A model generated the notes under the pieces. It was not told the origin of the DNA, did no database searches, and saw only the letters and a list, made by a program, of their open reading frames with translations. Shown piece after piece: positions 2,199-36,340 of a stretch of 64,000 bases of DNA. This DNA comes from an uncultured Chloroflexia bacterium. GTDB taxonomy: Bacteria > Chloroflexota > Limnocylindria > Limnocylindrales > CSP1-4. The translations under genes were made by a program, and so were the position numbers. Within the stretch, counting starts at the first letter, position 1. Every line of letters starts with the position of its first letter. Location of the stretch: the NCBI GenBank assembly GCA_963712735.1, contig CAVQIZ010000003.1, positions 428,855 to 492,854 on the forward strand, read 5' to 3'.

Positions 2199-2360
2199 GA
2201 GGCTAGGGTAGCGACCCACCGTGGGTGCTGACTCGGGCTCGGGCACGCGGACACGCACGTCCCAGCCTGGCTGCCGTGGCGGTGATGAACAGACTCGGAC
2301 CTCGATCCGAGGCAGTCGCCTGCGCCACCGCGGCCTCGGGTGGACGTCCACGAGACAATC

Positions 2361-2444
2361 GTAGGCAGCGGGAGGCGATGAAGCGCGGCCCTTCGATCAT
2401 GGCCGCCTTGGACCGTGCCGAGCCACTGGCGAACCCGGCCCGCT
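2361..2444 (+). repeat. R-element, inverted (B-type) variant, ~20 nt upstream of the 2464 start codon
   Basis: GTAGGCAGCGGGAGGCGATG..GCGGCC..CATGGCCGCC..CCGAGCCACTGGCGAACCCGGCCCGCT. The same block recurs at 12707, 29706 and (3' half) 14150. 5' AGCGGG can pair with 3' CCCGCT, and GCGGCC with GGCCGC. Confidence 0.6.
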
Positions 2445-2463
2445 CACGCGATCGGGGGTGATC

Positions 2464-3018
2464 ATGCGGATGTTACGGCTGCGTCTATCGGTACTTGGGC
2501 TGAGCGTGATGCTCGCCCTCACCGCAATGGCATTCACGGCGCCTGCTGCGAGCGCTCACAGCGGCCACCCACACATCATCGTCCAGGTGGACAAGTGGAT
2601 CCACAAGGCCGAGAGCTGGGGCAACTACATGGGTGCTCGCTACATGATGAAGATCCGCAACGGCGGACTTCACTGGCGCAACCAGCACGGCTTCGGCGAT
2701 CTCGATGACGTGAAAGCGGGTGACAGTGGCACCGGCATCTACCCGCGATTCGTCCTCAGGATGGGGTGCGCCACTCCCGAGTTCGACGATTGGTGGGTGG
2801 CCGCCCGCAAGGTCTCCAAGACCGGCTTTCGCTACTACCGCGGCCAGGCCACGAACTACCGCTGGCTCGATCCGGTCGACCGCGAGAACCGGGCGTTCTT
2901 CAACGCGATGCTCTTCGATCGGTCGACAAAGCTGTACGACGATGCGCTGGACGACCTCTTCGACTGCATCCTCGACGAGAGCCGGGGGCCGCGCTGGCTG
3001 AAGAGACTGCTGTTCTAG
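2464..3018 (+). CDS. Secreted hypothetical protein
   Basis: MRMLRLRLSVLGLSVMLALTAMAFTAPAASA signal-peptide-like N-terminus. GGGGGTG RBS before the ATG at 2464. No family recognised. Confidence 0.6.
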   Translation: MRMLRLRLSVLGLSVMLALTAMAFTAPAASAHSGHPHIIVQVDKWIHKAESWGNYMGARYMMKIRNGGLHWRNQHGFGDLDDVKAGDSGTGIYPRFVLRMGCATPEFDDWWVAARKVSKTGFRYYRGQATNYRWLDPVDRENRAFFNAMLFDRSTKLYDDALDDLFDCILDESRGPRWLKRLLF

Positions 3019-8831: not shown

Positions 8832-9467
8832 TCAGCGGGTGTGCTGCGAGGGCAGGATCTCGAAGGTCTCGGCGATGGAGAGCCAGTGGTCCGCGGGTCG
8901 CACGGGGCCGGAGCACGTCAGCCGGTACTGGGTGATCCCGTCGGTCATGACGTACTCGGACGTCTCGACATGTTCGGACGGCGCGCTCACCGTGTCCTCG
9001 CTGATGTCGATGCGGGCAGCCGCTCCTGCCGGAAGCGTCAGGTATGTCACCGTCGCCTCAGGTCTGGTGAGATCACCCTCGGCGATCGGCTCAGGCAGGT
9101 CTGCGGCGACGAGGACGTCGAGAGTCAGGCCGTCCGATGGAGTGCTCCTGACGAAGCAGTTGCCACGGCCCGTGTCCATGCCGAGGAGGGTGACGTCGTC
9201 GGGGCGCATCTCCGTGGCCAAGACCACCATCCTCATCGCGAGGTCCTGATCCTTGACCTCAGCTTCGATGAAGGCCGCGAGTGTCCCGGCATCGTCGGTC
9301 GCGGGTCGCAGATAGGCCCAGCCGTCGGGGAGTGTCAGCGCATAGCCCGCCCCCGATACCTCGACCCGCCCACCGAGCCCGAATGGCGCTGGCGACTGTG
9401 CCAGCACGGCGGAGGCGGTGGCGCCGAGCAGGCACGTGACCACCAGCGTGATCATCGGTCGTCGCAT
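8832..9467 (-). CDS. Fam-1 secreted protein (single module)
   Basis: Signal peptide MRRPMITLVVTCLLGATASAVLA; GGRVEVSGAGYALTLPDGW; C-terminal ADHWLSIAETFEILPSQ. GGAGGA RBS before the ATG at 9467. Confidence 0.8.
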   Translation of the reverse strand: MRRPMITLVVTCLLGATASAVLAQSPAPFGLGGRVEVSGAGYALTLPDGWAYLRPATDDAGTLAAFIEAEVKDQDLAMRMVVLATEMRPDDVTLLGMDTGRGNCFVRSTPSDGLTLDVLVAADLPEPIAEGDLTRPEATVTYLTLPAGAAARIDISEDTVSAPSEHVETSEYVMTDGITQYRLTCSGPVRPADHWLSIAETFEILPSQHTR

Positions 9468-9551: not shown

Positions 9552-10037
9552 CTAGCGCGAACCGATGCCGCTGCGCTGGGTCCGAGGCCATCGGGATCGG
9601 ACGCCGACGCCGATGAGCCACGCCACGGGAACGGCGATCAGCGAGATCATCACCCAGGTCCTGAAGCCGTCTCCCATGGATGGGTCAGCGAACCAGTACC
9701 GAGCGTCGAGCCCCAGCCAGAACGCGCCGATGAGCGCCGCAGCGAGGATGGCGCTCGCAACAAGCGCGGGCACGGGGCGCATGGATGCGCCGAGCACAAG
9801 CGCGAAACCGGCCGCCGACAGGAAGGGTGCGACGAAGAGCCATCCGCGGTAGTCATATCGGATACCGAGCAGATACGACACGATGCAGGCGACGCCGGCC
9901 AGCGCGAGCCCCACGACCAGCCCGGTGCCAGATCGGTCAGGCGGGGCAGCATGCTCAACCGCCTGCTTGGGTTCGCTCGTGGCGCCGATCTCCCGGGGCT
10001 CACGTTCCACCTTGCTCCTCCGATGCACCCATCTCAT
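9552..10037 (-). CDS. Integral membrane protein (about 4 TM); start uncertain (ATG 10037 or GTG 10028)
   Basis: Hydrophobic segments LVVGLALAGVACIVSYLLG, WLFVAPFLSAAGFALVLG, ALVASAILAAALIGAFWLG, WVMISLIAVPVAWLIGV. The predicted -10 overlaps the ATG at 10037, so a leaderless GTG at 10028 is possible. Confidence 0.6.
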   Translation of the reverse strand: MRWVHRRSKVEREPREIGATSEPKQAVEHAAPPDRSGTGLVVGLALAGVACIVSYLLGIRYDYRGWLFVAPFLSAAGFALVLGASMRPVPALVASAILAAALIGAFWLGLDARYWFADPSMGDGFRTWVMISLIAVPVAWLIGVGVRSRWPRTQRSGIGSR

Positions 10038-10137
10038 CCTTCGTGCCTCGGTCACGTGGTCAAGAGCCGGACGGCACGGCGTTGCTGCGCCGGCGACGGC
10101 CCACAGTCGGTCAGCCTTGTCGTCATGTACGCCATGC
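10036..10137 (-). repeat. R-element copy (degenerate body) with TTGACC-N16-AAGGAT
   Basis: GGTCAAGAGCCGGACGGCACGGC...CGGCGACGGCCCACAGTCGG...GTCATGTACGCCATG, aligned to the consensus on the plus strand. Confidence 0.5.
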
Positions 10138-10176
10138 GCGCGTCTCGGCTCGGCACGTCGACGGGACCTTCGACCC

Positions 10177-10204
10177 TTGACCCAGGACACCGAAGGCACA
10201 CGAT
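10177..10204 (+). promoter_or_regulatory. Promoter candidate TTGACC-N16-CACGAT for the Kelch gene at 10231
   Basis: TTGACC at 10177-10182 and CACGAT at 10199-10204. Same architecture as the R-element promoters but without the repeat body. Confidence 0.5.
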
Positions 10205-10230
10205 CCGGGTGGATGGAAGGGGGCTACCTG

Positions 10231-12405
10231 ATGCGACGGCTCGTTATCAGCATCCTGGCGCTGGCAGTGATCGTCGGCGGGGGGCCGGCCGTGGGCGTGA
10301 GCGGGGAAGCGAAGGCCGAGCGCGGCGCCTTCGAACCGGCAGGCACCATCAAGGGCGGCTTGAGCGGTCACGCGGCAGTGACGCTGCTCGATGGTCGCGT
10401 CCTCATCGCTGGCGGCCTGGGTCGTCGCGGCATCCTCGAGTCGGCACGGGTATGGGATCCTGCCACGGCCACCTCACGGAAGACGGGTCCCCTCGGGGAG
10501 GCGCGCACATCGGCAGCGGGCGTGACACTACCCGACGGGCGCGTCCTGGTCGTCGGTGGCGACGCCCGCGGCGGGCTCGTGCGCACCGCCGAGCTCTGGG
10601 ACCCGCAAAGCGGCACCTTCTCGCCCGCCGGCGAGCTCGAGGAGGCTCGGTTCAAGGCCGATGCCATCGCCCTCGCCGATGGTCGGGTGGCCGTCATCGG
10701 TGGCTCGGGTCCCGGGGAGGTGACCAGCATCGAGGTCTGGGATCCGGAGGCCGCAGCATTCCACACGGCGGGCGTCCTGCCGGAGTCCCGTGAGGACCAC
10801 GCTAGCGTGCTACTCCCTGACGGGCGGGTGCTCATCACCGGTGGCGAATCGGAGCGCGGCCCCCTGGACTCGGCGCTCCTCTGGGATCCAGCCACTGGCG
10901 ATGTCAGCGGGGCCGGCACGATGCTGGTCGACCGCTACGATCACACCAGCACCCTGCTCCCCGACGGGCGCGTCATCATCATCGGCGGCTGGACCGAGCG
11001 ATCGACCGTCGTGACCGCCGATGCCGAGATCTGGGAACCCGCGACCAGCATCTTCGTGACCGCGGGCTCGATGGCTGTGCCGCGGGCCTCGCATAGCGCG
11101 ACGCCGCTGCCCGACGGACGTGTCCTCGTGGTCGGTGGCGCTGGCAACTACGGCCGATACCCGGTCGCGGGCGAGGTCTGGGATCCCGAGCTGGGCCACT
11201 TCGCGCTCTCTGGGCCACTGACCTTCGGACGGGAGGGCCACACCGCGAGCCTCCTGCTGGACGGGCGTGTCTTGGTCGTCGGCGGCCGAGCCCTCCCCCC
11301 TGCGGGCGTCAAGTCGCCTGAGCTTCTCGAGGTCTGGGATCCAGAGGCCTTCCCCGAGATCCCCGCCCCACCGGCATCCCTCGACTTGGCGGTGTGTGCC
11401 TCTGACGGTGCGGAGCCCGGCACCGCGACACTGCTCGAGCGGTTCCCAGCCGAGCTCGAGGGCGCGCCCATCGCATCATCGGCTTGTGAGGGACCCGCTT
11501 GGCTGGCACCGCAGGACCGGGGCACGGTCACCACCGTCGAGCGTGCCGAGGCCCTGGTCGATTCGGTCGGGCGATCGATCGACGACCTGACCGTCGCAAC
11601 AGCTCTGCACGAGCGCGAGCCCGGCCGGATCGCGACGATCACCGCGCTCCGTGTGGAGGGTGCGCAGGCGGAACGATTTGCCGACCCGGCGATCTCGCTG
11701 CTGCTCGGCATCGAGCGACCCGACAAGCGCTACCGCTACCTCGGGCAGGATCGGATCCCTGTGACCAGGGTCCGGGACGAGACCGTCCCGGGCTCGCAGC
11801 CGGTGACGATGTACGCCCCCGTGGGCGACACGCTCTGGTTCGTGACGGCCGACGAGCCCGAGCTCCTGGAGCGCATCATCCGGTCCCTGCCGGGACCGGG
11901 CGGGCGCTTCGAGGTGCCGGAGCTCGGTATCGCCGTTACGTTCCCACAGGAGTGGATCGTCTCTCCGCTCTGGCCCGCCGGCACGCCCGAGGGCAACGAG
12001 GCGCGTCACGTGGGCCTTGAAGCCCTTGTCTGGCCCGTCGCGGTCGGACGCACACCGGGCACCAAGGGGTCGGACGAGACCTGTGGCCTGAGCCTGTTCA
12101 CGTCGATGGACATCACGCCCAAGAGATACCTCGAGGAACTCCAGCCAGACCGCCCCGGGCTGGAACGACCCGTGCCAGAGGTCCTCGACGGTGGGCTGCT
12201 GCGCCTCGCAGGATCGGGCAGCTTGCTCGGTGACAGCGGCGACACGGCCATCTACGTCCTCGGCTCGCACGACGCCATGGCGGTGCTCCGGTGCTCGGCT
12301 CCGGAAGCTCCTTCCGACCACTGGCTTTCGTTGGCCAGGACGATCGAGTTGCTGCCAGCCGCGGAGTCGAGCCCGCGCGCCCTCGTCACACTCCGGTTGC
12401 GGTGA
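10231..12405 (+). CDS. Secreted Kelch-repeat protein fused to linker module and Fam-1 C-terminal module
   Basis: Signal peptide MRRLVISILALAVIVGG. About 8 repeats of LPDGRVLV(V/I)GG...AE(L/I/V)WDP. Later VGRSIDDLTVATALHE...ALRVEG, then GIAVTFPQEW ... SDHWLSLARTIELLPAAE. GGAAGGGGG RBS. Confidence 0.85.
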   Translation: MRRLVISILALAVIVGGGPAVGVSGEAKAERGAFEPAGTIKGGLSGHAAVTLLDGRVLIAGGLGRRGILESARVWDPATATSRKTGPLGEARTSAAGVTLPDGRVLVVGGDARGGLVRTAELWDPQSGTFSPAGELEEARFKADAIALADGRVAVIGGSGPGEVTSIEVWDPEAAAFHTAGVLPESREDHASVLLPDGRVLITGGESERGPLDSALLWDPATGDVSGAGTMLVDRYDHTSTLLPDGRVIIIGGWTERSTVVTADAEIWEPATSIFVTAGSMAVPRASHSATPLPDGRVLVVGGAGNYGRYPVAGEVWDPELGHFALSGPLTFGREGHTASLLLDGRVLVVGGRALPPAGVKSPELLEVWDPEAFPEIPAPPASLDLAVCASDGAEPGTATLLERFPAELEGAPIASSACEGPAWLAPQDRGTVTTVERAEALVDSVGRSIDDLTVATALHEREPGRIATITALRVEGAQAERFADPAISLLLGIERPDKRYRYLGQDRIPVTRVRDETVPGSQPVTMYAPVGDTLWFVTADEPELLERIIRSLPGPGGRFEVPELGIAVTFPQEWIVSPLWPAGTPEGNEARHVGLEALVWPVAVGRTPGTKGSDETCGLSLFTSMDITPKRYLEELQPDRPGLERPVPEVLDGGLLRLAGSGSLLGDSGDTAIYVLGSHDAMAVLRCSAPEAPSDHWLSLARTIELLPAAESSPRALVTLRLR

Positions 12406-12706
12406 GGTGCTGCCAACGGCCTGTGTGCGGATGGCCACGGCTACTCCCCGAGTGGCAGGACCTCGTCGAACCGGACTGCGGGCACCCCGCCGATCTCCAG
12501 GTGGGCATCGCTTCGTTCGAGAGCGGCAGCCCGGTCATGCCCATCCATGTCGTACAGCCACAGGTCGGAGAAGGGCGCTGATCGGACCGATGCCGAGCTC
12601 GGCGAAGGCCCGGCCCGGCTGCGTCGCCACGGAGTCGCAGCCCGGACAATGTCGCTGAGCAACAACCACGCCGGCTGCCCTGCCGGACGACCGCGCGAGA
12701 ATCATC

Positions 12707-12784
12707 GGTAGCGGGAGGCGATGAGGTGCGGCCCACACCCTGGCCGCCGGGACCGTGTCCGAGCCACTGGCGAATCCGGCCCGA
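12707..12784 (+). repeat. R-element, inverted (B-type) variant upstream of a Fam-2 gene
   Basis: GGTAGCGGGAGGCGATGAGGTGCGGCCCACACCCTGGCCGCCGGGACCGTGTCCGAGCCACTGGCGAATCCGGCCCG. Preceded by GAGAAT (-10-like) at 12697-12702. Confidence 0.6.
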
Positions 12785-12803
12785 CGATACGAAGGGGGAG
12801 GTC

Positions 12804-13352
12804 GTGCGGAGATGGCAGCTGGCGCTGGCAGGAGGCGCTGCCTTGGGGCTGATCGGGGTGCTGGCCGTTGCGGCAGCAGCGCAGGAACCGATACTCGACC
12901 CACGCGTTACGCTGGTGACAGGGACGGTAACCGGGACGACCACCGACCCTTCCGACGAGGAGTGGTGGGTCGAGGATGCCATCGGCCATGCGCGGGTCTT
13001 CAAGGTCAGCGACGCCGTGGAGTGGAGCGACCCTCGACTGGGGGTCGGTGTCCTGTGGAGCCTGAACTTCGACATGTACGAGATCTCGGTGTCCAAGCAG
13101 ATGCCGTTCACCGGGACCCTGTGGCTCCATGGTCCGGACGGTCACTGGACCGGCACGTCCACCGGGTTCTGCGACCCTGTCGGTGAGTGCACCTCGATGA
13201 TCGTCCTGACCGGACATGACGGCTACGACGGTATGTTCGCGACCATCCTCAACACGGGAAACTCTGAAACGAGCGAGTCCCGCTACGAGGGGATGATCTT
13301 CGAGGGCGAGATGCCGCCGATGCCCGACCAAGTCGAGCCGTCCGCCGATTAA
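12804..13352 (+). CDS. Fam-2 secreted protein
   Basis: GTG start after an AAGGGGGAGG RBS. Signal peptide VRRWQLALAGGAALGLIGVLAVAAAAQ. WSDPRLGVG, LTGHDGYDGMFA, YEGMIFEGEMPPMP. Confidence 0.75.
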   Translation: MRRWQLALAGGAALGLIGVLAVAAAAQEPILDPRVTLVTGTVTGTTTDPSDEEWWVEDAIGHARVFKVSDAVEWSDPRLGVGVLWSLNFDMYEISVSKQMPFTGTLWLHGPDGHWTGTSTGFCDPVGECTSMIVLTGHDGYDGMFATILNTGNSETSESRYEGMIFEGEMPPMPDQVEPSAD

Positions 13353-13420
13353 CCCGATCGCGCCGCCTCGGCTGCCTGCGCCATGGCGCGGATGACCCGA
13401 CCGACCCGCTCTACAGGGCG
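13353..13420 (-). repeat. R-element partial copy (distal M1 half only) between convergent genes
   Basis: CCGATCGCGCCGCCTCGGCTGCCTGCGCCATGGCGCGGATGACCCGACCGACCCGCTCTACAGGGCG. The same 3' flank follows the Fam-2 genes ending at 30347 and 34659. Confidence 0.5.
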
Positions 13421-13452
13421 CTTCCCGATGCATCGCGATCGCCGCGGACCTG

Positions 13453-14067
13453 TCAGGCCTCGACCGACACGCCCACTTCTCCTGGCACGAACTCCAAGGT
13501 CTCCGCTATCGGGATCCAGCGATCCTCTGGCGGGCTCATCGAGCCACACATCAGCAGGAGCCACCGGTCGCCGTCAGTCACCAGGTAGCCGCGCCACACC
13601 CAGCCGTCATCATGCAGTGCGTCGCAAACGACAGAGCTGCCACCAGGGAGCTCGAGACGCCGGGTCTCGACCGACACGACCCTTGGGTCATCGTCGAGCG
13701 TATTGACGAAGTCTTGCGCCTGGTCGCTCAACAGCACGTAGATGCTGCACTGTTCGTGGCCCGCGTCCGTCATAGCCGGCTTTCGGGCGAGGAGCACGCC
13801 GCCGCTCTCGATGAACTCGATGTGCTGTTGGGCGGGCGCTCCGTGGATAGGATTCCACCAACCCTCGTCGAAGACGGCAGCATCGGCGTATTCCCAGTTC
13901 TTGGGGAGGCTCACGGCGAAGCCGTCCGCCGGGCGTTCGATGCGTTGGGGACCAAAGATCGGGACGCCCGACGCGAGGGCCGAGATGAGTCCCGCTACGA
14001 AGACCAGCACGACGAGGATCGCGAAGAACCGCGTCGTGCTCGACCTGATCAGGCCAACCTGGCGCAT
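13453..14067 (-). CDS. Fam-1 protein with N-terminal membrane anchor
   Basis: TRFFAILVVLVFVAGLISALA anchor; DGFAVSLPKNW; C-terminal EDRWIPIAETLEFVPGE. Confidence 0.8.
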   Translation of the reverse strand: MRQVGLIRSSTTRFFAILVVLVFVAGLISALASGVPIFGPQRIERPADGFAVSLPKNWEYADAAVFDEGWWNPIHGAPAQQHIEFIESGGVLLARKPAMTDAGHEQCSIYVLLSDQAQDFVNTLDDDPRVVSVETRRLELPGGSSVVCDALHDDGWVWRGYLVTDGDRWLLLMCGSMSPPEDRWIPIAETLEFVPGEVGVSVEA

Positions 14068-14093: not shown

Positions 14094-14189
14094 ATGCTCG
14101 ACCTGGTCGATGGGCCGGTCAAGGGCCGGACGGCCCGGCAGCCCCTGGCGGCGTGTGCCACGTCGAGCCACTGGCGAACCCGGCCCGCC
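14094..14189 (-). repeat. Chimeric R-element in a divergent intergenic region: A-type promoter end (TTGACC-N17-GAGCAT, facing 14067) joined to a B-type 3' half facing 14206
   Basis: GGTCAAGGGCCGGACGGCCCGGC followed by CCTGGCGGCGTGTGCCACGTCGAGCCACTGGCGAACCCGGCCCGC. Confidence 0.6.
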
Positions 14190-14205
14190 TAGCTTCGGGG
14201 GCTGT

Positions 14206-15223: not shown

Positions 15224-15225
15224 CC

Positions 15226-15323
15226 ATCCTCCGCGCCCTGGTCAGCGGGTCAAGGGCCGGACGGCCCGGCAGTGCGGTCGTCAATGGCCGCGACGACCAA
15301 GCCAAATCCGCTATCCATGGCGG
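15226..15323 (-). repeat. R-element full copy with TTGACC-N16-GAGGAT
   Basis: AGCGGGTCAAGGGCCGGACGGCCCGGC...CAATGGCCGCGACGACCAAGCCAAATCCGCTATCCATGGCG. GGTCAA at 15248-15253 and ATCCTC at 15226-15231 (plus strand). Confidence 0.75.
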
Positions 15324-15536: not shown

Positions 15537-15620
15537 TCGACCCATCCGACCATCGTGGGAACGGTCATGCGCCCTATCGCGGGGCGCTCGGTCGCCATCA
15601 TGCGATCAGGGGGTGCGGGA

Positions 15621-17699
15621 ATGCGCTGCGTCGTGATCGCGGCAGCGGTCTTGACGATCGCGTTGGGCCCGGCGTCATCGGCAGCCGACGAGACGTCGGT
15701 GCCCGGCGCGTTCGCTTCGGCCGGAAGTCTCGAGCAGACTCGTAGTAGCCACACGGCGACGCTCTTGCCTGATGGTCGGATCTTCTTGGCCGGGGGCGCG
15801 GATCCCAAGGGCCGACCCCTCTCCTCGACCGAGCTCTGGGACCCCGAGGCGGCCTCCTTCGTTCGCTCAGGGCCCCTCGGCTCGCCGCGGACGGGTCACA
15901 CGGCAACGCGCCTCACGGATGGCCGAATCCTCGTGGTCGGCGGCGATGATGGCAAGGGCAGCGTCGCCACGGCGGAGACCTGGGACCCGGCGACGGCGTC
16001 CGCCAAACCGACAGGGTCACTCCTGGGCGCTCGCACGTCGCACACGGCCACGCTGCTGGCTGATGGCCGGGTGCTCATCGTTGGTGGCTCGAAGGATGGA
16101 ACACTCGCCTCGGCCGAGATCTGGGACCCGGCGACCGGCGAGTTCGGCACCGCGGGGTCCTTGGCCGAGGCGCGCGCCGACCACACGGCCACGGCCCTGC
16201 CAGACGGCCGCGTCCTCGTCGTCGGTGGCTTCCACGAAGAGCCGTCGGGAAGGGAGGAAGCTCGCGCCTCGGCGGAGCTGTGGGATCCAGTGGGCGCGAG
16301 GTTCCAACCGACAGGGCCACTCATCGAAGCTCGCTCCGAGCATGCCGCCGCGCTCCTGCCCGACGGCCGCGTCCTCATCATCGGTGGCTGGGACAGAGAG
16401 AGGCGGCTGGCCTCAGCGGAGATCTGGGACCCGCGCACGGGCACGTTCACGGGGGCAGGCCCGCTCGCGGAACCGCGATGGGGACACTCCGCGACGGCCT
16501 TGCCCGACGGGCGGGTCCTCGTCGTCGGTGGCTGGGACGAAGGCAGCGCCGAGGTCTGGGACCCGCTGTCAGGAACGTTCAGCTTCACGAGCCCGCCGAA
16601 GGAGGAACGCTCGTTCCATACCGCGATGCTTCTCCCCGATGGCCGCGTGCTTCTCGCAGGTGGTCGGGGTCGCTACGGCCTGGTGGTCACGGCGGAGACG
16701 TGGGACCCTGCCCTGCCCCCGGATCCAGACGCCTCGACCGGGCCGACCTACGAGCTCGGCAGCCGGGCCGCCGAGTCTGACCTGCTCTTCGGTATCCGTC
16801 GCGACCTCCAGGGGACGTGCAAGCCGACGTCGGGACGCCTGCCGGTCGGAGTCGTCGCGCGAATCGACTGCCGTCCCAGCGACGCCAGCGTTCGCGGGGT
16901 CAGCATCGGGCTCTATGCGTCGGAGCGCACGCTGCTCGACGCATACTTCGACCGGTTGGCCGCGTTCGGGTTCGAGCGGGGCCAGGCCGACGCCGTACGC
17001 TGCAGGCCGAACCGACCGTCAGACGGGCCTTACGTCCCTACCCTTCCCGAGGACCAACTCGAATATCCGTACCGTGGCGGCTGCTTCATCGACGCCGTGG
17101 GGCGGGCCCACTACATCGTCACATCACCTCCCTTCGTGCTCGGCGAGGTGATGGGTCGGAGCAGGAGGGGCGACGTCGAGGCGGTGAAGGACTTCGCCTG
17201 GAAGGGGAACCAGGACGTACCTGGCGAACCGACACTCTGGCGCCGGGGGCGGCAGATGAACGAGACGCAGCGTGATCTGGAGGCCTCGCTGCCACGTCAT
17301 CTCGTCTGCGAACCCTACCGACGGAGCGCCGTCGCCAACGACCCCTTCTCCTATGGCGCTGGAGCCGCCATCAACTGTGGCCGAATCAGCTCGGAGGGCT
17401 TCCCCCGGGTCGCCTACATGACGCTGTTCCGCTTCCCCGACCCTTCGTCGATGGCCGACTACTGGTCGTTCCGTACGGACCAGAACCCAGACATGCCTTC
17501 GCGATCGGGTGCCTGTCGTGATGGCGACGATGGGTATGGGACCTGGGCCCACGGGGAGTATTTCTGCTATGTGTCGAGGGCCGGCGGCCACGCGCTCCTG
17601 CGCTGGACCGACGAGCGCACCGACACCTACGGCGTCCTTGACGCCACCGACGCCGAGCTCAGGCCGCTCTACCGCGCCTGGAAGGCACTCCGACCGTAG
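15621..17699 (+). CDS. Secreted Kelch-repeat protein with two Cys-containing C-terminal repeats of unknown function
   Basis: MRCVVIAAAVLTIALGPASSA signal peptide. About 7 HTAT(L/A)LPDGR(V/I)L(V/I)(V/I)GG repeats. The C-terminal half contains two related ~130-aa Cys-rich segments. Alternative starts at 15555, 15567 and 15600. Confidence 0.85.
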   Translation: MRCVVIAAAVLTIALGPASSAADETSVPGAFASAGSLEQTRSSHTATLLPDGRIFLAGGADPKGRPLSSTELWDPEAASFVRSGPLGSPRTGHTATRLTDGRILVVGGDDGKGSVATAETWDPATASAKPTGSLLGARTSHTATLLADGRVLIVGGSKDGTLASAEIWDPATGEFGTAGSLAEARADHTATALPDGRVLVVGGFHEEPSGREEARASAELWDPVGARFQPTGPLIEARSEHAAALLPDGRVLIIGGWDRERRLASAEIWDPRTGTFTGAGPLAEPRWGHSATALPDGRVLVVGGWDEGSAEVWDPLSGTFSFTSPPKEERSFHTAMLLPDGRVLLAGGRGRYGLVVTAETWDPALPPDPDASTGPTYELGSRAAESDLLFGIRRDLQGTCKPTSGRLPVGVVARIDCRPSDASVRGVSIGLYASERTLLDAYFDRLAAFGFERGQADAVRCRPNRPSDGPYVPTLPEDQLEYPYRGGCFIDAVGRAHYIVTSPPFVLGEVMGRSRRGDVEAVKDFAWKGNQDVPGEPTLWRRGRQMNETQRDLEASLPRHLVCEPYRRSAVANDPFSYGAGAAINCGRISSEGFPRVAYMTLFRFPDPSSMADYWSFRTDQNPDMPSRSGACRDGDDGYGTWAHGEYFCYVSRAGGHALLRWTDERTDTYGVLDATDAELRPLYRAWKALRP

Positions 17700-21899: not shown

Positions 21900-21915
21900 C
21901 TACACCTCCGGCTCC

Positions 21916-22012
21916 ATCCTCCGCGTCCCGCTCAGCGGGTCAAGGGCCGGACGGCCCGGCGCCGTGGCGGCGCCATGGCGGCGACGACCAGACATCACTC
22001 GCTATTCATGCC
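21916..22012 (-). repeat. R-element full copy with TTGACC-N16-GAGGAT
   Basis: CCCGCTCAGCGGGTCAAGGGCCGGACGGCCCGGCGCCGTGGCGGCGCCATGGCGGCGACGACCAGACATCACTCGCTATTCATG. The stop codon of the 22002..23246 gene lies inside it. Confidence 0.8.
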
Positions 22013-23246
22013 GGTCCGGACCTGAGTTCTTGCCAAGGGCGGAGTACCTGGGCTTCTCCTCTCTGGGCAGGAACTCGAAGGTCTCGGCGATGGAGAGCCA
22101 GTCGTCACGCCTTGCCATTTGATCGACACCCTCGACCGGGATGCCCTCCACGCAGCTCAGGGTGATGAGTCGATGGCCGTCGAGGAAGACGAATTCGGAG
22201 CCGAACGATGTCGGCGACCACTGGACGTCGTGGCGCGCAGCTTGACCGGCAGGGAGGTCGATCCGCGCCCATGTCTGCGTCGGGTCGTCCTCGAAGTACT
22301 CCGAGTTCAGCTCGACCAGTTGCCTGATCGAGGTCACAGCTGACTCTTGGACCCACGCCTCGCAGTGTTGTCGGTTGCGAGGCCCCTCCTCCGCCAGTGA
22401 CGCCCAGAACACCATCTCGTGGCCTATCGCCATCCGGTCATCGAACAGTGCTCCGAGGGAACCCTCCAAGGCAGCACCGAGCCAGGAGCCGGTCGTCGGC
22501 ATCGACTCCAACAGCTGGATGAGGTCGGGGTGTGTCAGATCGGCAGCGATCCAGCCATCGGGCACCTCGAGGGCGAAACCAGGATCGGCGAGCTCGATCC
22601 GACCCCCGATCACGACAGGGCCGGGGGTCGCCGGCAGGAACTCGAAGGTCTTGGCGATGGAGAGCCAATCGTCTTCAGGACGGTCGCGCGAGCCGCAGCC
22701 GAGCACGTACCACGAATCCGGACTGACGAGGTAGTAGGTCCGAGAGTACAGACCGTCCTCGGCCAGGCGGCCTGTGTATGCGGCTTGGCCAGGCGGGACG
22801 TCGACGTAACCGCTGTCGATATCCACCGTCGTGGGGTCGATCCCGTATGCCTCGAGATCACCAGCGACGGCATCCTCGAGCGAGACCCAGGCTCGGTTGG
22901 CCTGATAGCTACGCGTGACATCCATGATGACGCACACCTGTCCTTCTCCTGCGGAGTAGGCCAACAACAGGACGTCCGTGCCATCTGGTACGCGATGGTC
23001 CGGCTCTTGAACTACCGACTCCGCCTCGCGTGTCGGCTGCCGGACGGTCCAGTCGTCGGGGAAGGTGACCGCGAAGCCTTCGGCTGCTTGCACGATGCGG
23101 CCCGCTTCGATGGCCGGGCCGAGGCCGGTCATGGCGGTGCGAGTATCGGTCTCGTCGGGTGCGTACATCGTCGGCTCCGCCGAGCCTTGGTCGCAAGACC
23201 CCACCGACGTGAGCGCAATCCCCAACAGGACCGCTGGCCTCGACAC
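22002..23246 (-). CDS. Fam-1 lipoprotein-like protein with two tandem modules
   Basis: GTG start, MSRPAVLLGIALTSVGSC. EGFAVTFPDDW...DDWLSIAKTFEFLPATPG, then GGRIELADPGFALEVPDGW...RDDWLSIAETFEFLPREE. Confidence 0.8.
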   Translation of the reverse strand: MSRPAVLLGIALTSVGSCDQGSAEPTMYAPDETDTRTAMTGLGPAIEAGRIVQAAEGFAVTFPDDWTVRQPTREAESVVQEPDHRVPDGTDVLLLAYSAGEGQVCVIMDVTRSYQANRAWVSLEDAVAGDLEAYGIDPTTVDIDSGYVDVPPGQAAYTGRLAEDGLYSRTYYLVSPDSWYVLGCGSRDRPEDDWLSIAKTFEFLPATPGPVVIGGRIELADPGFALEVPDGWIAADLTHPDLIQLLESMPTTGSWLGAALEGSLGALFDDRMAIGHEMVFWASLAEEGPRNRQHCEAWVQESAVTSIRQLVELNSEYFEDDPTQTWARIDLPAGQAARHDVQWSPTSFGSEFVFLDGHRLITLSCVEGIPVEGVDQMARRDDWLSIAETFEFLPREEKPRYSALGKNSGPDRHE

Positions 23247-25489: not shown

Positions 25490-26647
25490 CTAGTCGGTCG
25501 GAGTCCAGACCTCCGCCGAGGCGAGCGGTCCGTTCTCACCCTCGCCACCGATGACCAGGACACGTCCATCCGCTGTGAGCGTCGCAGTATGGTTCTCGCG
25601 TCCCTCGCCCAGCGAGCCCGCGGAGCTGAACTCGCCGGTCGCTGGGTCCCAGATCTCCGCGGAGGTGAGCTCTCCTTCTCCGCGCCAGCCACCGATGACC
25701 AGGACACGTCCGTCCGGCATGAGCGTGGCGGTATGAAGACTGCGAGCCTCGTCAAGCGAGCCCGTTGGGCTGAAGGTCTCGGTCGTCGGGTCCCAGACCT
25801 CCGCCGAGGCCAGGAAGTCCGAGCCGCCCCAGCCACCGATGACCAGGACGCGGCCGTCCGACAGGAGCGTGGCCGTGTGGTTGATGCGCGTCTCGATGAG
25901 TGAGCCTGCCCGGCTGAACGCGCCGGTCGCTGGGTCCCAGATTTCGGCTGCATCTGGGTCAGGACCGAGCTCGTTGGTGGCACCGCCGCCGACCACGAGG
26001 ACTCGACCGTCGGCGAGCAGCGTCTCGGTCGGCTTGAAGCGTGGCACGGTCAGCCATGCCACCTGGCCGAAGGTCTCGGTCACCGGGTCCCAGATCTCCG
26101 CTGATATTCCGTACTCGTCGAAGTCGCCCCCGATGATGAGCACCCGGCCATCGAGTAACAGGATCGCGTCATGCGTGGCACGGGACTGGGTGAGGGTGCC
26201 CGCCGGATGGAACCTGAAAGTCGCGGGGTCCCAGGTCTCGGCCACGCGCAGGACGTCCCAGGAGCGCGGGTACGCACTCCCGATCACGTCGGGCTGGCCA
26301 CCGACGACGAGGACGCGGCCATCCGGCAACGACGTCGTGGTCGCGTAGCTGCGTCCCCACGTCAGCCACGCCGCGGGGCTGAACCGGTCCGTCGCGGGGT
26401 CCCAGACCTCGGCCGCAGACGGGAAGTTCGACCCACCACCAAGCACGAAGACACGTCCGTCCGGCAGGAGTGTCGCGGTGTTGATGCCGCCGGTCTCGGT
26501 GAGTGAGCCCGCCGGGCTGAACGCCCCGGCCGCGGGCGACTCCTCTGCGGCCCTGGTCGCTGGGGCCGAAATGAGCAGGAGCGTGAGTGCCATGGTGGTG
26601 AGGAGGAGGTGCCGCATCCCGTTTCTCCTTGCCGGAACTCGCCGCAT
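25490..26647 (-). CDS. Secreted Kelch-repeat protein
   Basis: Seven LPDGRVLV(I/V)GG...AE(V/I)WDP repeats. Signal peptide ...MRHLLLTTMALTLLLISAPATRA. The alternative start ATG 26617 has an AAGGAGA RBS. Confidence 0.85.
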   Translation of the reverse strand: MRRVPARRNGMRHLLLTTMALTLLLISAPATRAAEESPAAGAFSPAGSLTETGGINTATLLPDGRVFVLGGGSNFPSAAEVWDPATDRFSPAAWLTWGRSYATTTSLPDGRVLVVGGQPDVIGSAYPRSWDVLRVAETWDPATFRFHPAGTLTQSRATHDAILLLDGRVLIIGGDFDEYGISAEIWDPVTETFGQVAWLTVPRFKPTETLLADGRVLVVGGGATNELGPDPDAAEIWDPATGAFSRAGSLIETRINHTATLLSDGRVLVIGGWGGSDFLASAEVWDPTTETFSPTGSLDEARSLHTATLMPDGRVLVIGGWRGEGELTSAEIWDPATGEFSSAGSLGEGRENHTATLTADGRVLVIGGEGENGPLASAEVWTPTD

Positions 26648-28820: not shown

Positions 28821-28918
28821 ACGGTCCCGCACCCCATTCATTGGGTCAAGAGCTGGAAGGCATAACGGCTGCCGTCACCATGGCGGCGACGACCAGACCA
28901 AACCCGCTACTCATGGCG
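28821..28918 (-). repeat. R-element full copy with TTGACC-N17-GACCGT
   Basis: GGGTCAAGAGCTGGAAGGCATAACGGCTGCCGTCACCATGGCGGCGACGACCAGACCAAACCCGCTACTCATGGCG. Confidence 0.8.
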
Positions 28919-28925
28919 GTATGGC

Positions 28926-29535
28926 CTAGCCTTCGGTGGGCAGGAACTCGAAGGACTCGGCGATCGCCAGCCACAAGTCGTCGCGACGGGTAGCAGCCAC
29001 GCAGTCCATGAGGTAGTACCAGCCACGGTGTAGCCACTCGAAGGTGGCGTCCTCCTCGGAGCCCGCCGGTCCCTGGGACAGGAACGAGCGTAGTGCATTC
29101 CCAGAGGGCAGAACGATCGGCTCACGACGGACGGCGGCGTAGTACTCCTCGTCCGACTCCTTCCGCATCACCGCAAGGTCCGCCAAGGTCATCTCGTCGC
29201 ATGGCCACGTATCGACGTAGACGTTGTTGCGCCAGTCAGCTGGGTCGCCCGCGAGAAGAGCCGTGGTCATCTGTTGACCGGCTATCACCGACCGCGACTC
29301 GTCGTCGAATTGCTCCATCGCCTCGGCAAGGTCGGGATGCCAGAAGATCGAAGGCGATCCAGTCGTCGGGCACCGAGAGGCCGAAGCCTGCTGGATGGAC
29401 GTGGATGCGCCCGCCAACGACGATGGGAGCATCCGCCTCGCTGTCGGGTGACGGTGTGTCCCACGCCTGGTCGCCGGAGGCGCTGCGGTCGAGCCAGTCG
29501 CCGAACTCCCCAAGGAACGGAGATGGGTGATGCAT
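28926..29535 (-). CDS. Fam-1 protein, frame-disrupted at ~29340 as assembled
   Basis: GGRIHVHPAGFGLSVPDDWIAFDL (ORF 29236..29571) continues in ORF 28926..29636 as HPDLAEAMEQFDDES...DDLWLAIAESFEFLPTEG. Removing one G of CTGGCA restores AFDLLHPDLAEA. Confidence 0.65.
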
Positions 29536-29562: not shown

Positions 29563-29654
29563 AGTCTCCACGCCACTCTCCAGCGGGTCAAGGGCCGGAC
29601 GGCCGCCCCTGTGCCATGGCGGCGACGACCAGACATAACCCGCTACTCGTGGCG
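29563..29654 (-). repeat. R-element full copy with TTGACC-N17-GAGACT
   Basis: CAGCGGGTCAAGGGCCGGACGGCCGCCCCTGTGCCATGGCGGCGACGACCAGACATAACCCGCTACTCGTGGCG. Confidence 0.8.
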
Positions 29655-29705
29655 GTGCTCAAGCACCAACAGCGAGCACGATGGACGGCGGCGGGACAAT
29701 GGTAC

Positions 29706-29782
29706 GTAGCGGGAGGCAGCGAAACGCGGTCCACACCATGGCCGCCGGGACCGCGCCGAGCCACTGGCGAACCCGGCCCGCC
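29706..29782 (+). repeat. R-element, inverted (B-type) variant upstream of a Fam-2 gene
   Basis: GTAGCGGGAGGCAGCGAAACGCGGTCCACACCATGGCCGCCGGGACCGCGCCGAGCCACTGGCGAACCCGGCCCGCC. GACAAT (-10-like) lies just upstream. Confidence 0.65.
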
Positions 29783-29804
29783 TACAGGCCGAGGAGGCTT
29801 GTCC

Positions 29805-30347
29805 ATGCGCACGTCGCGATCGTTCCTCGTGGGGTTGGGCGCTCTCAGTCTGGTTGCCAGCCTGTCTTTGGCGGTGGTGGCGCAAGACGAAGAGGAGCTG
29901 GAGCCACCCACGGCCACCTTCGTTACGGGGGTCGCGGTCTCCAAACTAGAGGATGTCGACTTCGCCGGGTGGGAGATGGAGTGGAGCGACCCGCGTCTGC
30001 CGTCGCGGGCGCAGTACCGGTTCAGCGCGGAGACAGGGCGGAGCGATCATCCCGACGGGACCGTCATGGCCGCGCAGATGGTGGCGGTGGTGCGGCTCGA
30101 CGGTCCTGATGGCGGCTGGTCCGGGACCGACTGGATCCTGGCATGGACATTGGAACCTGAACCGGGTGAGAAGGGTCGGGACACGTGGATCGAGGTGTTG
30201 ATGCTGGATGGTGACGGCGACTACGAGGGCCTCTCGGCCACGCTCACGAACACCGGCCGTGGAGGTTCCCCCGGCCCCTACGAAGGCTTCATCTTCGAGG
30301 GCGAGTTGCCGCGCATGCCGGACCGGATCGAACCGAACTCCGAGTAG
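29805..30347 (+). CDS. Fam-2 secreted protein
   Basis: MRTSRSFLVGLGALSLVASLSLAVVAQ; WSDPRLPSR; GDGDYEGLSA; YEGFIFEGELPRMP; GAGGAGG RBS. Confidence 0.75.
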   Translation: MRTSRSFLVGLGALSLVASLSLAVVAQDEEELEPPTATFVTGVAVSKLEDVDFAGWEMEWSDPRLPSRAQYRFSAETGRSDHPDGTVMAAQMVAVVRLDGPDGGWSGTDWILAWTLEPEPGEKGRDTWIEVLMLDGDGDYEGLSATLTNTGRGGSPGPYEGFIFEGELPRMPDRIEPNSE

Positions 30348-30388: not shown

Positions 30389-30466
30389 CCGGTCAACGCC
30401 CGACGGCCCGGCGGCGGGACGTTGCCATGGCGGCGACGACCAGGCCGAACCGCTGTACTTGGCGAT
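30389..30466 (-). repeat. R-element copy downstream of a Fam-2 gene (no usable -10)
   Basis: CCGGTCAACGCCCGACGGCCCGGCGGCGGGACGTTGCCATGGCGGCGACGACCAGGCCGAACCGCTGTACTTGGCG. Confidence 0.7.
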
Positions 30467-30471
30467 CCTGC

Positions 30472-31056
30472 CTACTCCTGCTCCTCGGGCAGGAACTCGA
30501 TGGTCTGGGCGATCGACAGCCAGTCATCGTCGGGCGCTTCGTCGAGGCTCGTACACCAGAGCCAGACGCAGCCGGGATCCCTCGCGATGACGAACACGGA
30601 ATGGAACACGTCCCGGCCCTGGTGCCGCGTGCGCTGGATGAGGTGGGACGCATGGCCAGCGGGCACGTCCATCTCGATGACACCGAAGCTGTCGTCAGGC
30701 AGGAGGAGGATCGCGAGCGAGAAGGCGACGTCGCGGGTGGTCAGCGGGAGAGGTTGCCATCGGGGTGTGAGGTCGAACGGCCCCAGGTCGCAGTGTTCTT
30801 GTCGCTGCTCATACGCCGGAGCGATCCCACGCGCCAGCACGGGGAAGATCGGGATGGCCGGCCCCTGCATCCGTCCCGCGCGTGTCCTCGGGAGTGCCTC
30901 GGGTGTGACGAGGACCTCCCAGTCGACTGGATACGTCTCCGCGACGTCAGCCCATGGCATCTCGATCCGCTGCCCTGTGGCCGTCGTGACGGGCTCGGGT
31001 GACTCTGCGGCAGCGGCGACGGCATCGGCCGCCGACAGTGCCACCACCACCAGCAT
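30472..31056 (-). CDS. Fam-1 secreted protein; start uncertain
   Basis: MLVVVALSAADAVAAAA...; C-terminal PDDDWLSIAQTIEFLPEEQE. The upstream portion of the 242-aa ORF is translated R-element. Confidence 0.7.
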   Translation of the reverse strand: MLVVVALSAADAVAAAAESPEPVTTATGQRIEMPWADVAETYPVDWEVLVTPEALPRTRAGRMQGPAIPIFPVLARGIAPAYEQRQEHCDLGPFDLTPRWQPLPLTTRDVAFSLAILLLPDDSFGVIEMDVPAGHASHLIQRTRHQGRDVFHSVFVIARDPGCVWLWCTSLDEAPDDDWLSIAQTIEFLPEEQE

Positions 31057-31121
31057 CGTCACGAATCGAGTCCTCTTCGTCCTTGCTGTGGATGCCTTCT
31101 TCTTCCCCGCGCCGCTCTCCC

Positions 31122-31220
31122 GGTTCAAGGGCCGGACGGCCCGGCGGCCCGGCGGCCCGGCGGCTTGGCGGCTTGGCGGCCATGGTGGCACCGACCACAT
31201 ATCACCCGCGCTTCATGGCG
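31122..31220 (-). repeat. R-element copy containing an 8-nt microsatellite (GGCCCGGC x3, GGCTTGGC x2)
   Basis: GGTTCAAGGGCCGGACGGCCCGGCGGCCCGGCGGCCCGGCGGCTTGGCGGCTTGGCGGCCATGGTGGCACCGACCACATATCACCCGCGCTTCATGGCG. Confidence 0.7.
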
Positions 31221-31520: not shown

Positions 31521-31560
31521 GTCTCGTGGCTTGCAGCTCACGGCGCGCAGGCCGTGGTTA

Positions 31561-32640
31561 CTATTCTTCCGGCAGGAACTCGAAGGACTCGGCGATGGAC
31601 AGCCACTCCTCACGATGGGACAGCACGCCGGTGCACCAGAGCAAGGCGACGGCGTCGCCCCCACCGATGGCGTAGTGCTCGACGTAGACAGCGCCCGGGC
31701 TGTCGGTGCGGATGCGCCCCGTCATGAACTGGTTCATGAAGACCCGGCTCAGCCCTTCGTGGAGTGGCTCGACGATCAGATCCTCTGACTGCCCGAAGAT
31801 CTCGTTCAAGAACTCGTCGGCGGTGAGCTCGATCGGCGCGGATTTCACGAGCGTGCAGAGGTTCGGCGTGTCGCGCTCGCGTCCCTCGGGCCCCCATGCG
31901 ACGAGTAGGTTCTGCAGCACGACGTCGGGTCCGAAGCGTTCCGGCCCAGACAGGATGAGGATGGCCGTGTCGGAGTCTTCCTCGACGATCTCGATGTCCC
32001 AGTCCTCTGGGGGCGTCACCGCGTAGCCGGGTTCGCGAACCTCGCTCCGCCGACTGGACTCCGGTGGGGAGGAGGGACCCGTCGTCTCGTCGGGCAACCG
32101 CCCTGGCTCGGCGGGCAGGAGCTCGATGGACTCGGCGATGGTGTACCACAGCCGCCCAGCGTAGGCATCGGTCGTGCTGCAGGTCAGCCAGGCGTACCCG
32201 TCGTCGGCCGCGAAGATGTACGTGTCGCTGGTGCCGGCCTGTCCTTGCTTGGGCAGGTCGGGCGCGTACAGGCGCACCGCTTCTCCTGCCGGCAGTTCCG
32301 CCGCGGGGGCGATCTGGGCCTGGCGATAGCCGCGGATGCTACTCAGCGTGGAAGCGATCTCCTCTGGTCGCACACCGTCGAACTGGAACGTCTCCACGAT
32401 GCATCGCCCCGCACCGCCCACCTCGCGAGCGACCAGCACACGGTCGAAGATCGGGAGGCCCTGCTCTCCCGTCGTGACCCGCCAGCCAGCGGGGACGGTC
32501 AGGGCGAGCCCGTGGTCGGGAAACTCGAACCGCTGGTCCTCGGCAATCGGGCTGGGCCTCGGTCGCTGCGCGATGGCCGACGCGCCAGTCACGACCACGA
32601 CGGCGCAGACCAACAGCGCAGAGACAGCTAGACGAACCAT
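31561..32640 (-). CDS. Fam-1 secreted protein with two tandem modules
   Basis: MVRLAVSALLVCAVVVVTGASA. HGLALTVPAGW...RLWYTIAESIELLPAEPG, then PGYAVTPPEDW...REEWLSIAESFEFLPEE. The ATG at 32640 follows GGGGGG, and the upstream ATG overlaps the -10. Confidence 0.8.
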   Translation of the reverse strand: MVRLAVSALLVCAVVVVTGASAIAQRPRPSPIAEDQRFEFPDHGLALTVPAGWRVTTGEQGLPIFDRVLVAREVGGAGRCIVETFQFDGVRPEEIASTLSSIRGYRQAQIAPAAELPAGEAVRLYAPDLPKQGQAGTSDTYIFAADDGYAWLTCSTTDAYAGRLWYTIAESIELLPAEPGRLPDETTGPSSPPESSRRSEVREPGYAVTPPEDWDIEIVEEDSDTAILILSGPERFGPDVVLQNLLVAWGPEGRERDTPNLCTLVKSAPIELTADEFLNEIFGQSEDLIVEPLHEGLSRVFMNQFMTGRIRTDSPGAVYVEHYAIGGGDAVALLWCTGVLSHREEWLSIAESFEFLPEE

Positions 32641-32965: not shown

Positions 32966-32971
32966 GCCCCC

Positions 32972-33068
32972 ATCGTCCCCGCCCCGCTCAGCGGGTCAAG
33001 GGCCGGACGGCCCGGCGGCATGCGTGGCCATGGCGGCGACGACCAGACCAAACCCGCTATTCATGGCG
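32972..33068 (-). repeat. R-element, near-consensus full copy with TTGACC-N16-GACGAT, 6 nt before the ATG at 32965
   Basis: CCCCGCTCAGCGGGTCAAGGGCCGGACGGCCCGGCGGCATGCGTGGCCATGGCGGCGACGACCAGACCAAACCCGCTATTCATGGCG. Confidence 0.85.
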
Positions 33069-33192
33069 ATGCTGGAACGGTCCTGGGGAGTGACTTGACG
33101 CGGCCACTAGCCTTGTGGCTCGCGCCGGTCCGGCAGGCAGCAGAAGGCTTGTCCGTCCCCGGATGCACCGCGAGGGCAAAGGAGCATCTTTC

Positions 33193-33759: not shown

Positions 33760-33787
33760 GTCACTCGCGCCACCCGGGCTGTGCGCG

Positions 33788-33827
33788 CCTGCGACGACGA
33801 CCAGACCAAACCCGCTATTCATGGCGG
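33788..33827 (-). repeat. R-element partial copy (distal half)
   Basis: CCTGCGACGACGACCAGACCAAACCCGCTATTCATGGCGG directly after the Fam-2 stop. Confidence 0.6.
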
Positions 33828-33863
33828 TTCTGGGCCACCGCCATCGCGTGGTTGGACACCCGC

Positions 33864-33906
33864 GCGAGAATCTGCATAGCGGGAGGCGATGTCGCGCGGC
33901 CCGCGC
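33864..33906 (+). repeat. R-element B-type variant, truncated
   Basis: GCGAGAATCTGCATAGCGGGAGGCGATGTCGCGCGGCCCGCGC. Shares GAGAAT..TAGCGGGAGGCGATG..GCGCGGCCC with 12697-12735 and 2361-2392. Confidence 0.5.
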
Positions 33907-36331: not shown

Positions 36332-36340
36332 GTAGTCGTG

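Follow-up and report, generated by a model that had tools for sequence, protein, structure and literature searches.

A probable c-di-GMP-II-clan riboswitch aptamer in the leaders of small secreted-protein genes of an uncultured Chloroflexia bacterium

A repeat-rich array of small genes in an uncultured Chloroflexia bacterium raises the question of what the conserved block lying just upstream of several of them is. The stretch analysed here, referred to as the window, comprises 64,000 nucleotides (nt) of contig CAVQIZ010000003.1 (assembly GCA_963712735.1, positions 428,855 to 492,854), and all coordinates are positions within it. Three plus-strand genes of the array encode members of a protein family designated Fam-2 (Fam-2a, Fam-2b and Fam-2c). 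A first-pass annotation distinguished an abundant A-type element from a B-type block preceding these genes, and considered the latter both an inverted A-type copy that had lost its promoter and a possible structured leader, proposing an Rfam search and a covariation test of two helices as checks. As reported below, the B-type block is very probably the aptamer of a riboswitch of the cyclic dimeric guanosine monophosphate class II (c-di-GMP-II) clan, its best Rfam match being the GAG variant RF03169.

The whole 64-kilobase (kb) window was scanned with Rfam cmscan at curated thresholds, the gathering score of RF03169 being 40 bits. Exactly three matches were returned, all to RF03169 (c-di-GMP-II-GAG riboswitch aptamer), all on the plus strand and all covering model positions 1-86 of 86:

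2362-2449, plus strand: intact riboswitch aptamer preceding 2464-3018, an unrelated gene with a signal peptide (RF03169, 58.2 bits, expect value E = 5.9e-9)
12705-12790, plus strand: riboswitch aptamer of 86 nt before Fam-2a (RF03169, 44.2 bits, E = 2.3e-5)
29703-29787, plus strand: intact riboswitch aptamer before Fam-2b, gene 29805-30347 (RF03169, 58.5 bits, E = 5e-9)

The sequence block described earlier as invariant, CGAGCCACTGGCGAAYCCGGCCCG, does occur at four plus-strand sites (2419, 12760, 14164 and 29757), with none expected by chance, and the 5' string TAGCGGGAGGC is found at 12709, 29707 and 33877, a copy with a single mismatch lying at 2366. The block had been noted to precede also two unrelated genes, which holds for 2464, where it is intact, and for 14206, where only its 3' half is present. 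The blocks at 14145 and 33877 lie below the RF03169 gathering score.

Relatives were collected with R1, a covariance model based on the three window copies, which yielded 118 matches in 100 sources plus 27 in 21 sources (145 in total), mostly in Limnocylindria-type Chloroflexota and with several loci carrying 3-6 aptamers. A junction-motif scan of a genome collection returned 117 loci, most of them metagenome-assembled genomes labelled Limnocylindria, Limnocylindrales or 'uncultured Chloroflexia', and a minority labelled Actinomycetota or other phyla.

In the Rfam alignments helix P1 is formed by AGCGGG/CCCGCU, a pairing that the first-pass annotation had already recognised, P2 by GGC/GCC, and P3 by GCGGYC with a downstream GRCCGC, the block GAGCCACUGGCGAA.CCGG providing the 3' strand of P2 and the junction. 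A pseudoknot connects the P3 loop UGGCCGCC with the 3' junction GGCGAA.CCG, GGCCGCC being one of its strands. Between P2 and P3 the sequence bears the signature of a kink-turn, namely a 3-nt bulge plus tandem GA/GA: the 5' side carries GGC, three variable bulged nt and GA, and the 3' side GA and GCC. This signature is present in all three window copies, and its G and A positions are conserved in 114-117 of the 118 relatives, in agreement with the kink-turn described for the parent c-di-GMP-II class (PMC12564702).

Across the same 118 relatives, 88% of the helix cells are paired, compared with 21-45% in slid controls, and compensatory changes occur in 15 of 17 base pairs, the observed values being reached in none of 500 shuffles. 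The proposed covariation test is therefore answered differently for its parts: the P1/P2/P3 set covaries, whereas the inner hairpin GCGGYC...GGCCGC, although pairable in 91% of cells, displays zero covariation, and the helix that is maintained is P3, pairing GCGGYC with GRCCGC. This hairpin, a competitor of P3 and the pseudoknot, could at best represent an alternative conformer. The pseudoknot itself, (U/C)GG.CGCC with GGCG..CCG, is pairable in 96.5% of cells, against 21-38% in slid controls.

The surroundings of the aptamers include the following features:

2341-2359, plus strand: promoter-like motif TGGACGTCCACGAGACAAT, matching TGGAC-N8-GAnAAT
12684-12702, plus strand: promoter-like motif CGGACGACCGCGCGAGAAT, its -10-like GAGAAT ending 7 nt before TAGCGGG
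12794-12801, plus strand: G-rich Shine-Dalgarno sequence GGGGGAGG, as read from the sequence, lying 8 nt past the 3' strand of P1, with the GTG start 2 nt further on
12804-13352, plus strand: Fam-2a gene, GTG start, 182 amino acids, predicted signal peptide and 8-9-strand beta-barrel
29682-29700, plus strand: promoter-like motif TGGACGGCGGCGGGACAAT, matching TGGAC-N8-GAnAAT

The spacing of 7-9 nt that had been noted between a -10-like GAGAAT or GACAAT and the TAGCGGG downstream of it is found in all four window units. Four of the five window matches to TGGAC-N8-GAnAAT (2341, 12684, 29682 and 33853) precede riboswitch units, and in many related loci GAGAAT, GACAAT or GATAAT stands equally spaced before the aptamer. 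A sigma-70 promoter scan of the 12-32 kb region found nothing, because the -10 candidates (GAGGAT, GAGAAT) match TATAAT at too few positions, and the promoter assignments consequently derive from positional conservation only. The recurrence of the hexamer at a fixed distance suggests that transcription starts at the base of P1, which would also account for the mismatches that the window copies show at the outer pairs of the Rfam P1.

On the downstream side, start codons in the window are found 14-22 nt beyond the P1 3' strand, with the Shine-Dalgarno sequence 8-15 nt past P1, and the layout CCGRCCCGC-N5-10-GGGGG-N5-8-ATG recurs in relatives. An open reading frame (ORF) with its ribosome-binding site follows 103 of the 118 matches, the start lying mostly 10-30 nt past the aptamer. 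By position, in the 5' untranslated region (UTR), on the sense strand and just before an ORF, the aptamer would be cis-regulatory. The suggestion of a riboswitch- or leader-like structured RNA is thus borne out by clan membership through RF03169, by helices that covary among relatives and by the short, fixed distance to the start codon.

Regarding the mechanism, the leader reaches the ribosome-binding site and contains no U-tract terminator, which points to translational control. Transcription would start a few nt before AGCGGG from a promoter with the -10 sequence GAGAAT/GACAAT, and the device would most likely govern translation initiation of the one gene downstream. A second messenger of the nucleotide type, c-di-GMP or a related molecule, is the expected ligand; once bound, it would hold the C-rich 3' strands in P1 and the pseudoknot and thereby free the G-rich ribosome-binding site. 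These 3' strands are the only C-rich partners available to the ribosome-binding site, and because ligand binding would sequester them the switch is probably of the ON type. Accessibility was modelled for 95 leaders by a constrained partition function, with the aptamer either enforced or not. Enforcing the aptamer raised the unpaired probability of the ribosome-binding site from 0.44 to 0.52 overall (p = 0.0016), the change being from 0.22 to 0.69 in the 2362 copy and from 0.30 to 0.73 in that at 12705.

Several observations weigh against the riboswitch reading or its details. The accessibility test is biased towards an ON outcome, because the enforced aptamer pairs remove potential partners of the ribosome-binding site, and accessibility of the 29703 copy is unchanged (0.82 to 0.83). 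Fitting the covariation alignment to the model, as was done, favours the structure, slid controls being nevertheless far lower. The pseudoknot pairs never covary and owe their support to conservation, their invariance making them uninformative in this respect. Minimum-free-energy folding of the leaders performed no better than on shuffles and did not recover the aptamer, plain folding being itself uninformative for an RNA that is GC-rich and pseudoknotted, with the pseudoknot outside the folding model. The 12705 copy is marginal: it is the weakest of the three, with 44 bits, a P1 of only 4 base pairs (bp; CGGG/CCCG) and the junction GGCGAAUCCGG, including a U where 113 of 118 relatives have A or C. 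Model R1 scores it at 99 bits, a value that includes this copy among the three from which R1 was built. It may be weakened relative to the other copies, and its orthologue in the related locus L118 keeps the full AGCGGG/CCCGCU. Finally, ligand, transcription start and direction of switching have all been inferred.

Proteins encoded downstream of the aptamer across loci are very diverse, and most of those inspected open with a signal-peptide-like N-terminus. Fam-2 forms the largest downstream cluster, with 15 proteins including those of window genes 12804 and 29805. In this lineage the switch would control numerous individual genes that encode small secreted or envelope proteins. The three window Fam-2 proteins are paralogous (BLASTP E = 3e-20 and 7e-10), and no Pfam domain was found in them apart from a C-terminal SAF domain in 33922. 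An AlphaFold model of Fam-2a (predicted local distance difference test, pLDDT, of 82) consists of the signal peptide and an 8-9-strand beta-barrel; its fold is only weakly similar (E about 3e-3) to DUF3224, allene oxide cyclase and AbyU-type barrels. In two other genomes, Fam-2a orthologues of 81% and 68% identity occur in different gene neighbourhoods and are still preceded by the aptamer, 13-14 nt from the start codon. Fam-2a has in addition a 99%-identical protein match, P0001.

Assignment within the clan is more delicate. Variant names list the nucleotides at ligand-contacting positions, a convention also used for the 'U, G, C' guanine variant (PMC9295807). Within clan CL00127 Rfam shows only the best match, and the margin of GAG over GCG is therefore not visible. 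Rfam reports GAG for the three window copies, RF03170 (c-di-GMP-II-GCG) being the best clan model for none of them, and the parent model RF01786 is outscored by a variant model on every window copy and in 18 related loci. In these 18 loci Rfam calls both GAG (RF03169) and GCG (RF03170), at times within one locus. The junction reads GGCGAGACCGA in the top-scoring GAG members and in the family consensus, GGCG(A/G)ACCCG(G/A) in 12 of 12 GCG-called sequences of related loci, and GGCGAACCCGG (2362 and 29703) or, as given above, the U-containing form (12705) in the window. Over part of this junction, the window copies carry GAACCCGG or GAAUCCGG, against GAGACCGA in top-scoring GAG members, and so resemble the GCG-called sequences; close relatives, such as L056:6-90, are called GCG. 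With a GCG-like junction and a GAG report from Rfam, the window copies are borderline within this pair, and the safe statement, as far as sequence comparison goes, would be membership of the c-di-GMP-II clan, variant group. GAG- and GCG-called aptamers were also seen to adjoin, with one gene each, in the single 8-kb loci L060, L016, L056 and L007. If the ligands truly differ, genomes with both calls run both variants; otherwise, the Rfam split is finer than the biology.

The alternative that survives best is an ordinary class II riboswitch sensing c-di-GMP, with GAG and GCG as mere taxonomic flavours, a possibility that we regard as doubtful but to be taken seriously. Clan and architecture (P1, P2, kink-turn, P3 and pseudoknot) are identical, and the downstream genes code mostly for secreted or surface proteins, as is typical of c-di-GMP regulons, an example being tandem class II switches ahead of surface-anchor genes (PMC9481103). 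Nonetheless, the variant models beat RF01786 on every copy, and the window showed neither a GGDEF nor an EAL gene, a weak negative. The alternative also disagrees with the proposal, reportedly made by Weinberg et al. in 2017, that variants of c-di-GMP-I and c-di-GMP-II sense other signalling molecules; c-di-GMP-II-GAG is said to have been proposed in that work, in which variants were reportedly split off for their differing ligand-contacting nucleotides. We know of no reported ligand for the GAG and GCG variants of c-di-GMP-II, which to our knowledge are still orphan riboswitch candidates, and the literature found to name c-di-GMP-II-GAG gives it only as a covariance model in lists.

A leader that senses no ligand, and instead binds a protein or small RNA or stabilises the transcript across a secreted-protein regulon, appears quite improbable. 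It would fit with the variant having no known ligand, with the short and poorly defined expression platform, and with the constant, specific promoter motif and frequent neighbouring repeat module (coreB, below), which suggest regulation at several levels. However, the block is clearly homologous to a validated aptamer architecture, its invariant junction nucleotides are typical of a small-molecule pocket and less so of a protein-binding site, and it precedes many unrelated genes in many genomes.

Returning to the riboswitch reading, its relation to the abundant A-type element has to be considered. This element consists of two separable modules, coreA and coreB, which on sequence grounds are distinct from the aptamer, and it gave no Rfam match even at E <= 10. 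coreA reads, on the minus strand, GGGCCGTCCGGCCC-TTGACC-N16/17-nAnnnT, with -10 variants GAGGAT, GACGAT or CACTAT, and about 17 copies occur in the window, all on that strand (e.g. 15224-15276, 21914-21966, 32970-33022 and 36028-36080). Its palindrome abuts the -35 hexamer, and a ribosome-binding site and minus-strand gene start follow 20-40 nt past it, an arrangement common to many unrelated small genes. coreA is plausibly a sigma-70-type promoter falling below the threshold of a simple consensus scan.

coreB spans about 60 nt, (C)CATGGCGGCGACGACCAGAC...CCCGCTATTCATGGCGRT, and contains the palindrome CGCCATGGCG and, about 33 nt later, a second CATGGCG. Its 22 window copies (13371-36134) are all on the plus strand (e.g. 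28868-28929, 33018-33079 and 36075-36134), and a single orientation is kept within each locus (window, L056, L060 and L118). coreB precedes two promoter types, follows non-Fam-2 plus-strand genes as well, and also stands alone between convergent genes. Around the Fam-2 genes the following copies were detected by nhmmer:

13371-13430, plus strand: degenerate coreB after the Fam-2a stop (E = 4e-9)
29608-29665, plus strand: coreB upstream of the Fam-2b unit (E = 1.5e-14)
30418-30476, plus strand: coreB after the Fam-2b stop (E = 2e-12)
33781-33835, plus strand: coreB upstream of the Fam-2c unit (E = 5e-14)
34677-34740, plus strand: coreB after the Fam-2c stop (E = 2.5e-15)

No coreB copy was detected by nhmmer upstream of the 12705 unit. 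The three copies after the stops are the normal-orientation half-copies that the first-pass annotation had placed there, and the shared flank GCCGCCTCGGCTGCCTGCGCCATGGCGG is likewise present after the Fam-2 stops, with an insertion in the 30347 copy. The inverted repeats said to flank the Fam-2 genes are not recovered: since the copies on both sides share one orientation, two of the three units, those of 29805 and 33922, lie between direct coreB repeats.

Outside the window, L060 contains seven coreB copies and no coreA; each of six of these copies is followed, at about 30-40 nt, by a promoter motif and aptamer, and no aptamer match follows the seventh. L118 and metagenome contigs repeat the order coreB, promoter, aptamer seen in L060. 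A metagenome scan with a coreB 20-mer gave about 25 contigs with genuine full-length copies, most hits being single matches unconfirmed by the coreB profile. Two candidate functions for coreB were rejected. A mini-ORF (MNSGFGLVVAAMA...) is incompatible with some copies having no ATG, others having stops, and indels that are not multiples of three, and a hairpin CGCCATG...CATGGCG folds like shuffles on both strands (z -1.4 to +1.6), with copies that break the putative stem showing no compensatory changes. coreB could instead be a regulator-binding site or a unit boundary. In one element copy, at 31121-31172, a GCCGGGCC-type segment has expanded to a short tandem run (CGGCCCGGCGGCCCGGCGGCCCGG...), which suggests slippage within the module.

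Two sites of the window retain only part of the aptamer:

14119-14194, plus strand: chimeric remnant before ORF 14206, coreA fused to the aptamer 3' half (GAGCCACTGGCGAACCCGGCCCGCC), the aptamer part being 14145-14194 (R1, 27.7 bits, E = 0.005)
33853-33905, plus strand: promoter-like motif and 5' aptamer remnant (TAGCGGGAGGCGATGTCGCGCGGCCC...) before Fam-2c, gene 33922-34659, the aptamer part being 33873-33905 (by alignment)

The upstream copy ascribed to all three Fam-2 genes is therefore intact before two of them, the one before 33922 having lost about 55 nt. There, some 30 nt of the 5' aptamer are kept and, through an internal deletion, joined to the ribosome-binding site; the remnant matches neither R1 nor Rfam, and Fam-2c would no longer be under the switch, as most of its aptamer is deleted. 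In the remnant at 14119-14194, which Rfam does not report even at E <= 10, the coreA part is the promoter module of the minus-strand gene 13453-14067. A further remnant was noticed in L118 (2871-2957), where the 3' part of the aptamer is replaced by the last 20 or so Fam-2 codons (…GFIF…MPDPIEP…). It corresponds to deletion of most of a riboswitch-controlled gene, so that units appear to turn over by deletion.

In view of these modules, the reading of the B-type block as a decayed, promoter-less and inverted A-type copy, in Fam-2 cassettes bracketed by inverted repeats like a mobile element or integron, retains almost no probability and is to be dropped: TAGCGGG and GCCGCCGGG-like strings do occur in both elements, element half-copies follow each Fam-2 stop and remnants such as 14119-14194 show that rearrangement can join both sequence types, but the A-type consensus aligns to B-type copies like shuffles on either strand (z -1.0 to +1.5), only the B-type belongs to a curated, covarying RNA family, 22 of 22 coreB copies lie on one strand with two-sided copies forming direct repeats, and no recombinase, transposase or integrase domain was found in the subset of roughly 50 window ORFs scanned.

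An extension of the riboswitch reading may be put forward as a speculation that we hold to be unlikely in its entirety. The window copies and their closest relatives share a distinct junction, in the two forms quoted above, and they might constitute a ligand-specificity variant for a second messenger other than c-di-GMP, turning on a large, scattered set of small secreted beta-barrel and other envelope proteins in soil Limnocylindria, with coreB as the site on the DNA at which a regulator or recombination would act, so that units are duplicated, shuffled and co-regulated.

The window has about 68% G+C and is chromosomal, with his genes, pheST, thrS, mutS2 and a class A penicillin-binding protein at 40-64 kb, histidinol dehydrogenase being encoded at 42303-43634. 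A conserved C-terminal motif of approximately W-L-S-I-A-E-T-F-E-F-L-P is shared by the products of many minus-strand array genes, which are otherwise diverged:

8836-8894, 13469-13527, 22051-22109, 22618-22676, 28924-28982, 30473-30531, 31556-31614, 32099-32157 and 35315-35373: sites of the C-terminal motif

The motif matches no Pfam family, and a similar C-terminal end is found in the Kelch protein 9883-12405. Three Kelch-repeat beta-propeller proteins are encoded in the array (9883-12405 and 15555-17699 on the plus strand, 25490-26647 on the minus strand), and their internal repeats explain several of the long DNA repeats, both direct and inverted, between 10-17 kb and 25-26.5 kb. Directly bordering the repeat-rich array, a gene for an extracytoplasmic function (ECF)-type sigma factor (Sigma70_r2 and r4_2; 36302-36931, plus strand) is followed by ORF 36928-37719 (plus strand), which has no Pfam match and is possibly an anti-sigma factor, the pair being preceded by an element copy at 36025-36137. 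This ECF sigma factor may regulate the promoters of the array.

The leader thus resolves to a catalogued Rfam family, and the ligand question of the GAG and GCG variants predates this locus. What the window and its relatives add is an unusually high density of the variant, with several copies per 8 kb. Each copy has its own promoter and one gene, nearly all of these genes encoding signal-peptide proteins. The copies at 2362-2449 and 29703-29787 could serve as compact natural constructs in a ligand screen, while the defined regulon helps to guess the signal in a poorly known, mostly uncultured soil lineage. Natural loss-of-switch controls are available in the two decayed copies, of which the first has an internal deletion and the other is reduced to its 3' half.

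Among known systems, integron attC cassettes share with this locus an arrangement of short, mostly unrelated genes separated by an element of about 60 nt in a single orientation. They differ in that no integrase was found among the roughly 50 scanned ORFs, that coreB is conserved in sequence and not in structure, and that the window genes occur in both orientations with their own promoters, upstream of which the element lies.

The parent c-di-GMP-II class (RF01786; Lee et al. 2010), which according to PMC12564702 is mainly clostridial and binds c-di-GMP at about 200 pM, has the same overall fold with kink-turn and pseudoknot, and the same placement upstream of ORFs. It also occurs in multiple copies linked to genes for surface or secreted proteins, and tandem switches precede surface-anchor genes (PMC9481103). 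In the window, by contrast, the aptamers are single, with one gene each, and not in tandem before one gene; the host is a high-GC Chloroflexota lineage, and the variant models outscore the parent.

With c-di-GMP-II-GCG (RF03170) the copies at 2362 and 29703 share the junction, whereas the GAG model scores higher on all three window copies. Relative to c-di-GMP-II-GAG (RF03169), these copies score 44-58 bits, against 70-83 bits for typical GAG members in related loci, and have a short P1 (4-6 bp), apparently due to transcription starting at its base. Nonetheless, they match that family over its full length, with P1, P2 and P3, the kink-turn signature, both pseudoknot strands and the conserved junction GAGCCAnUGGCGA, and they occupy the same position, in the 5' UTR and on the strand of the downstream ORF.

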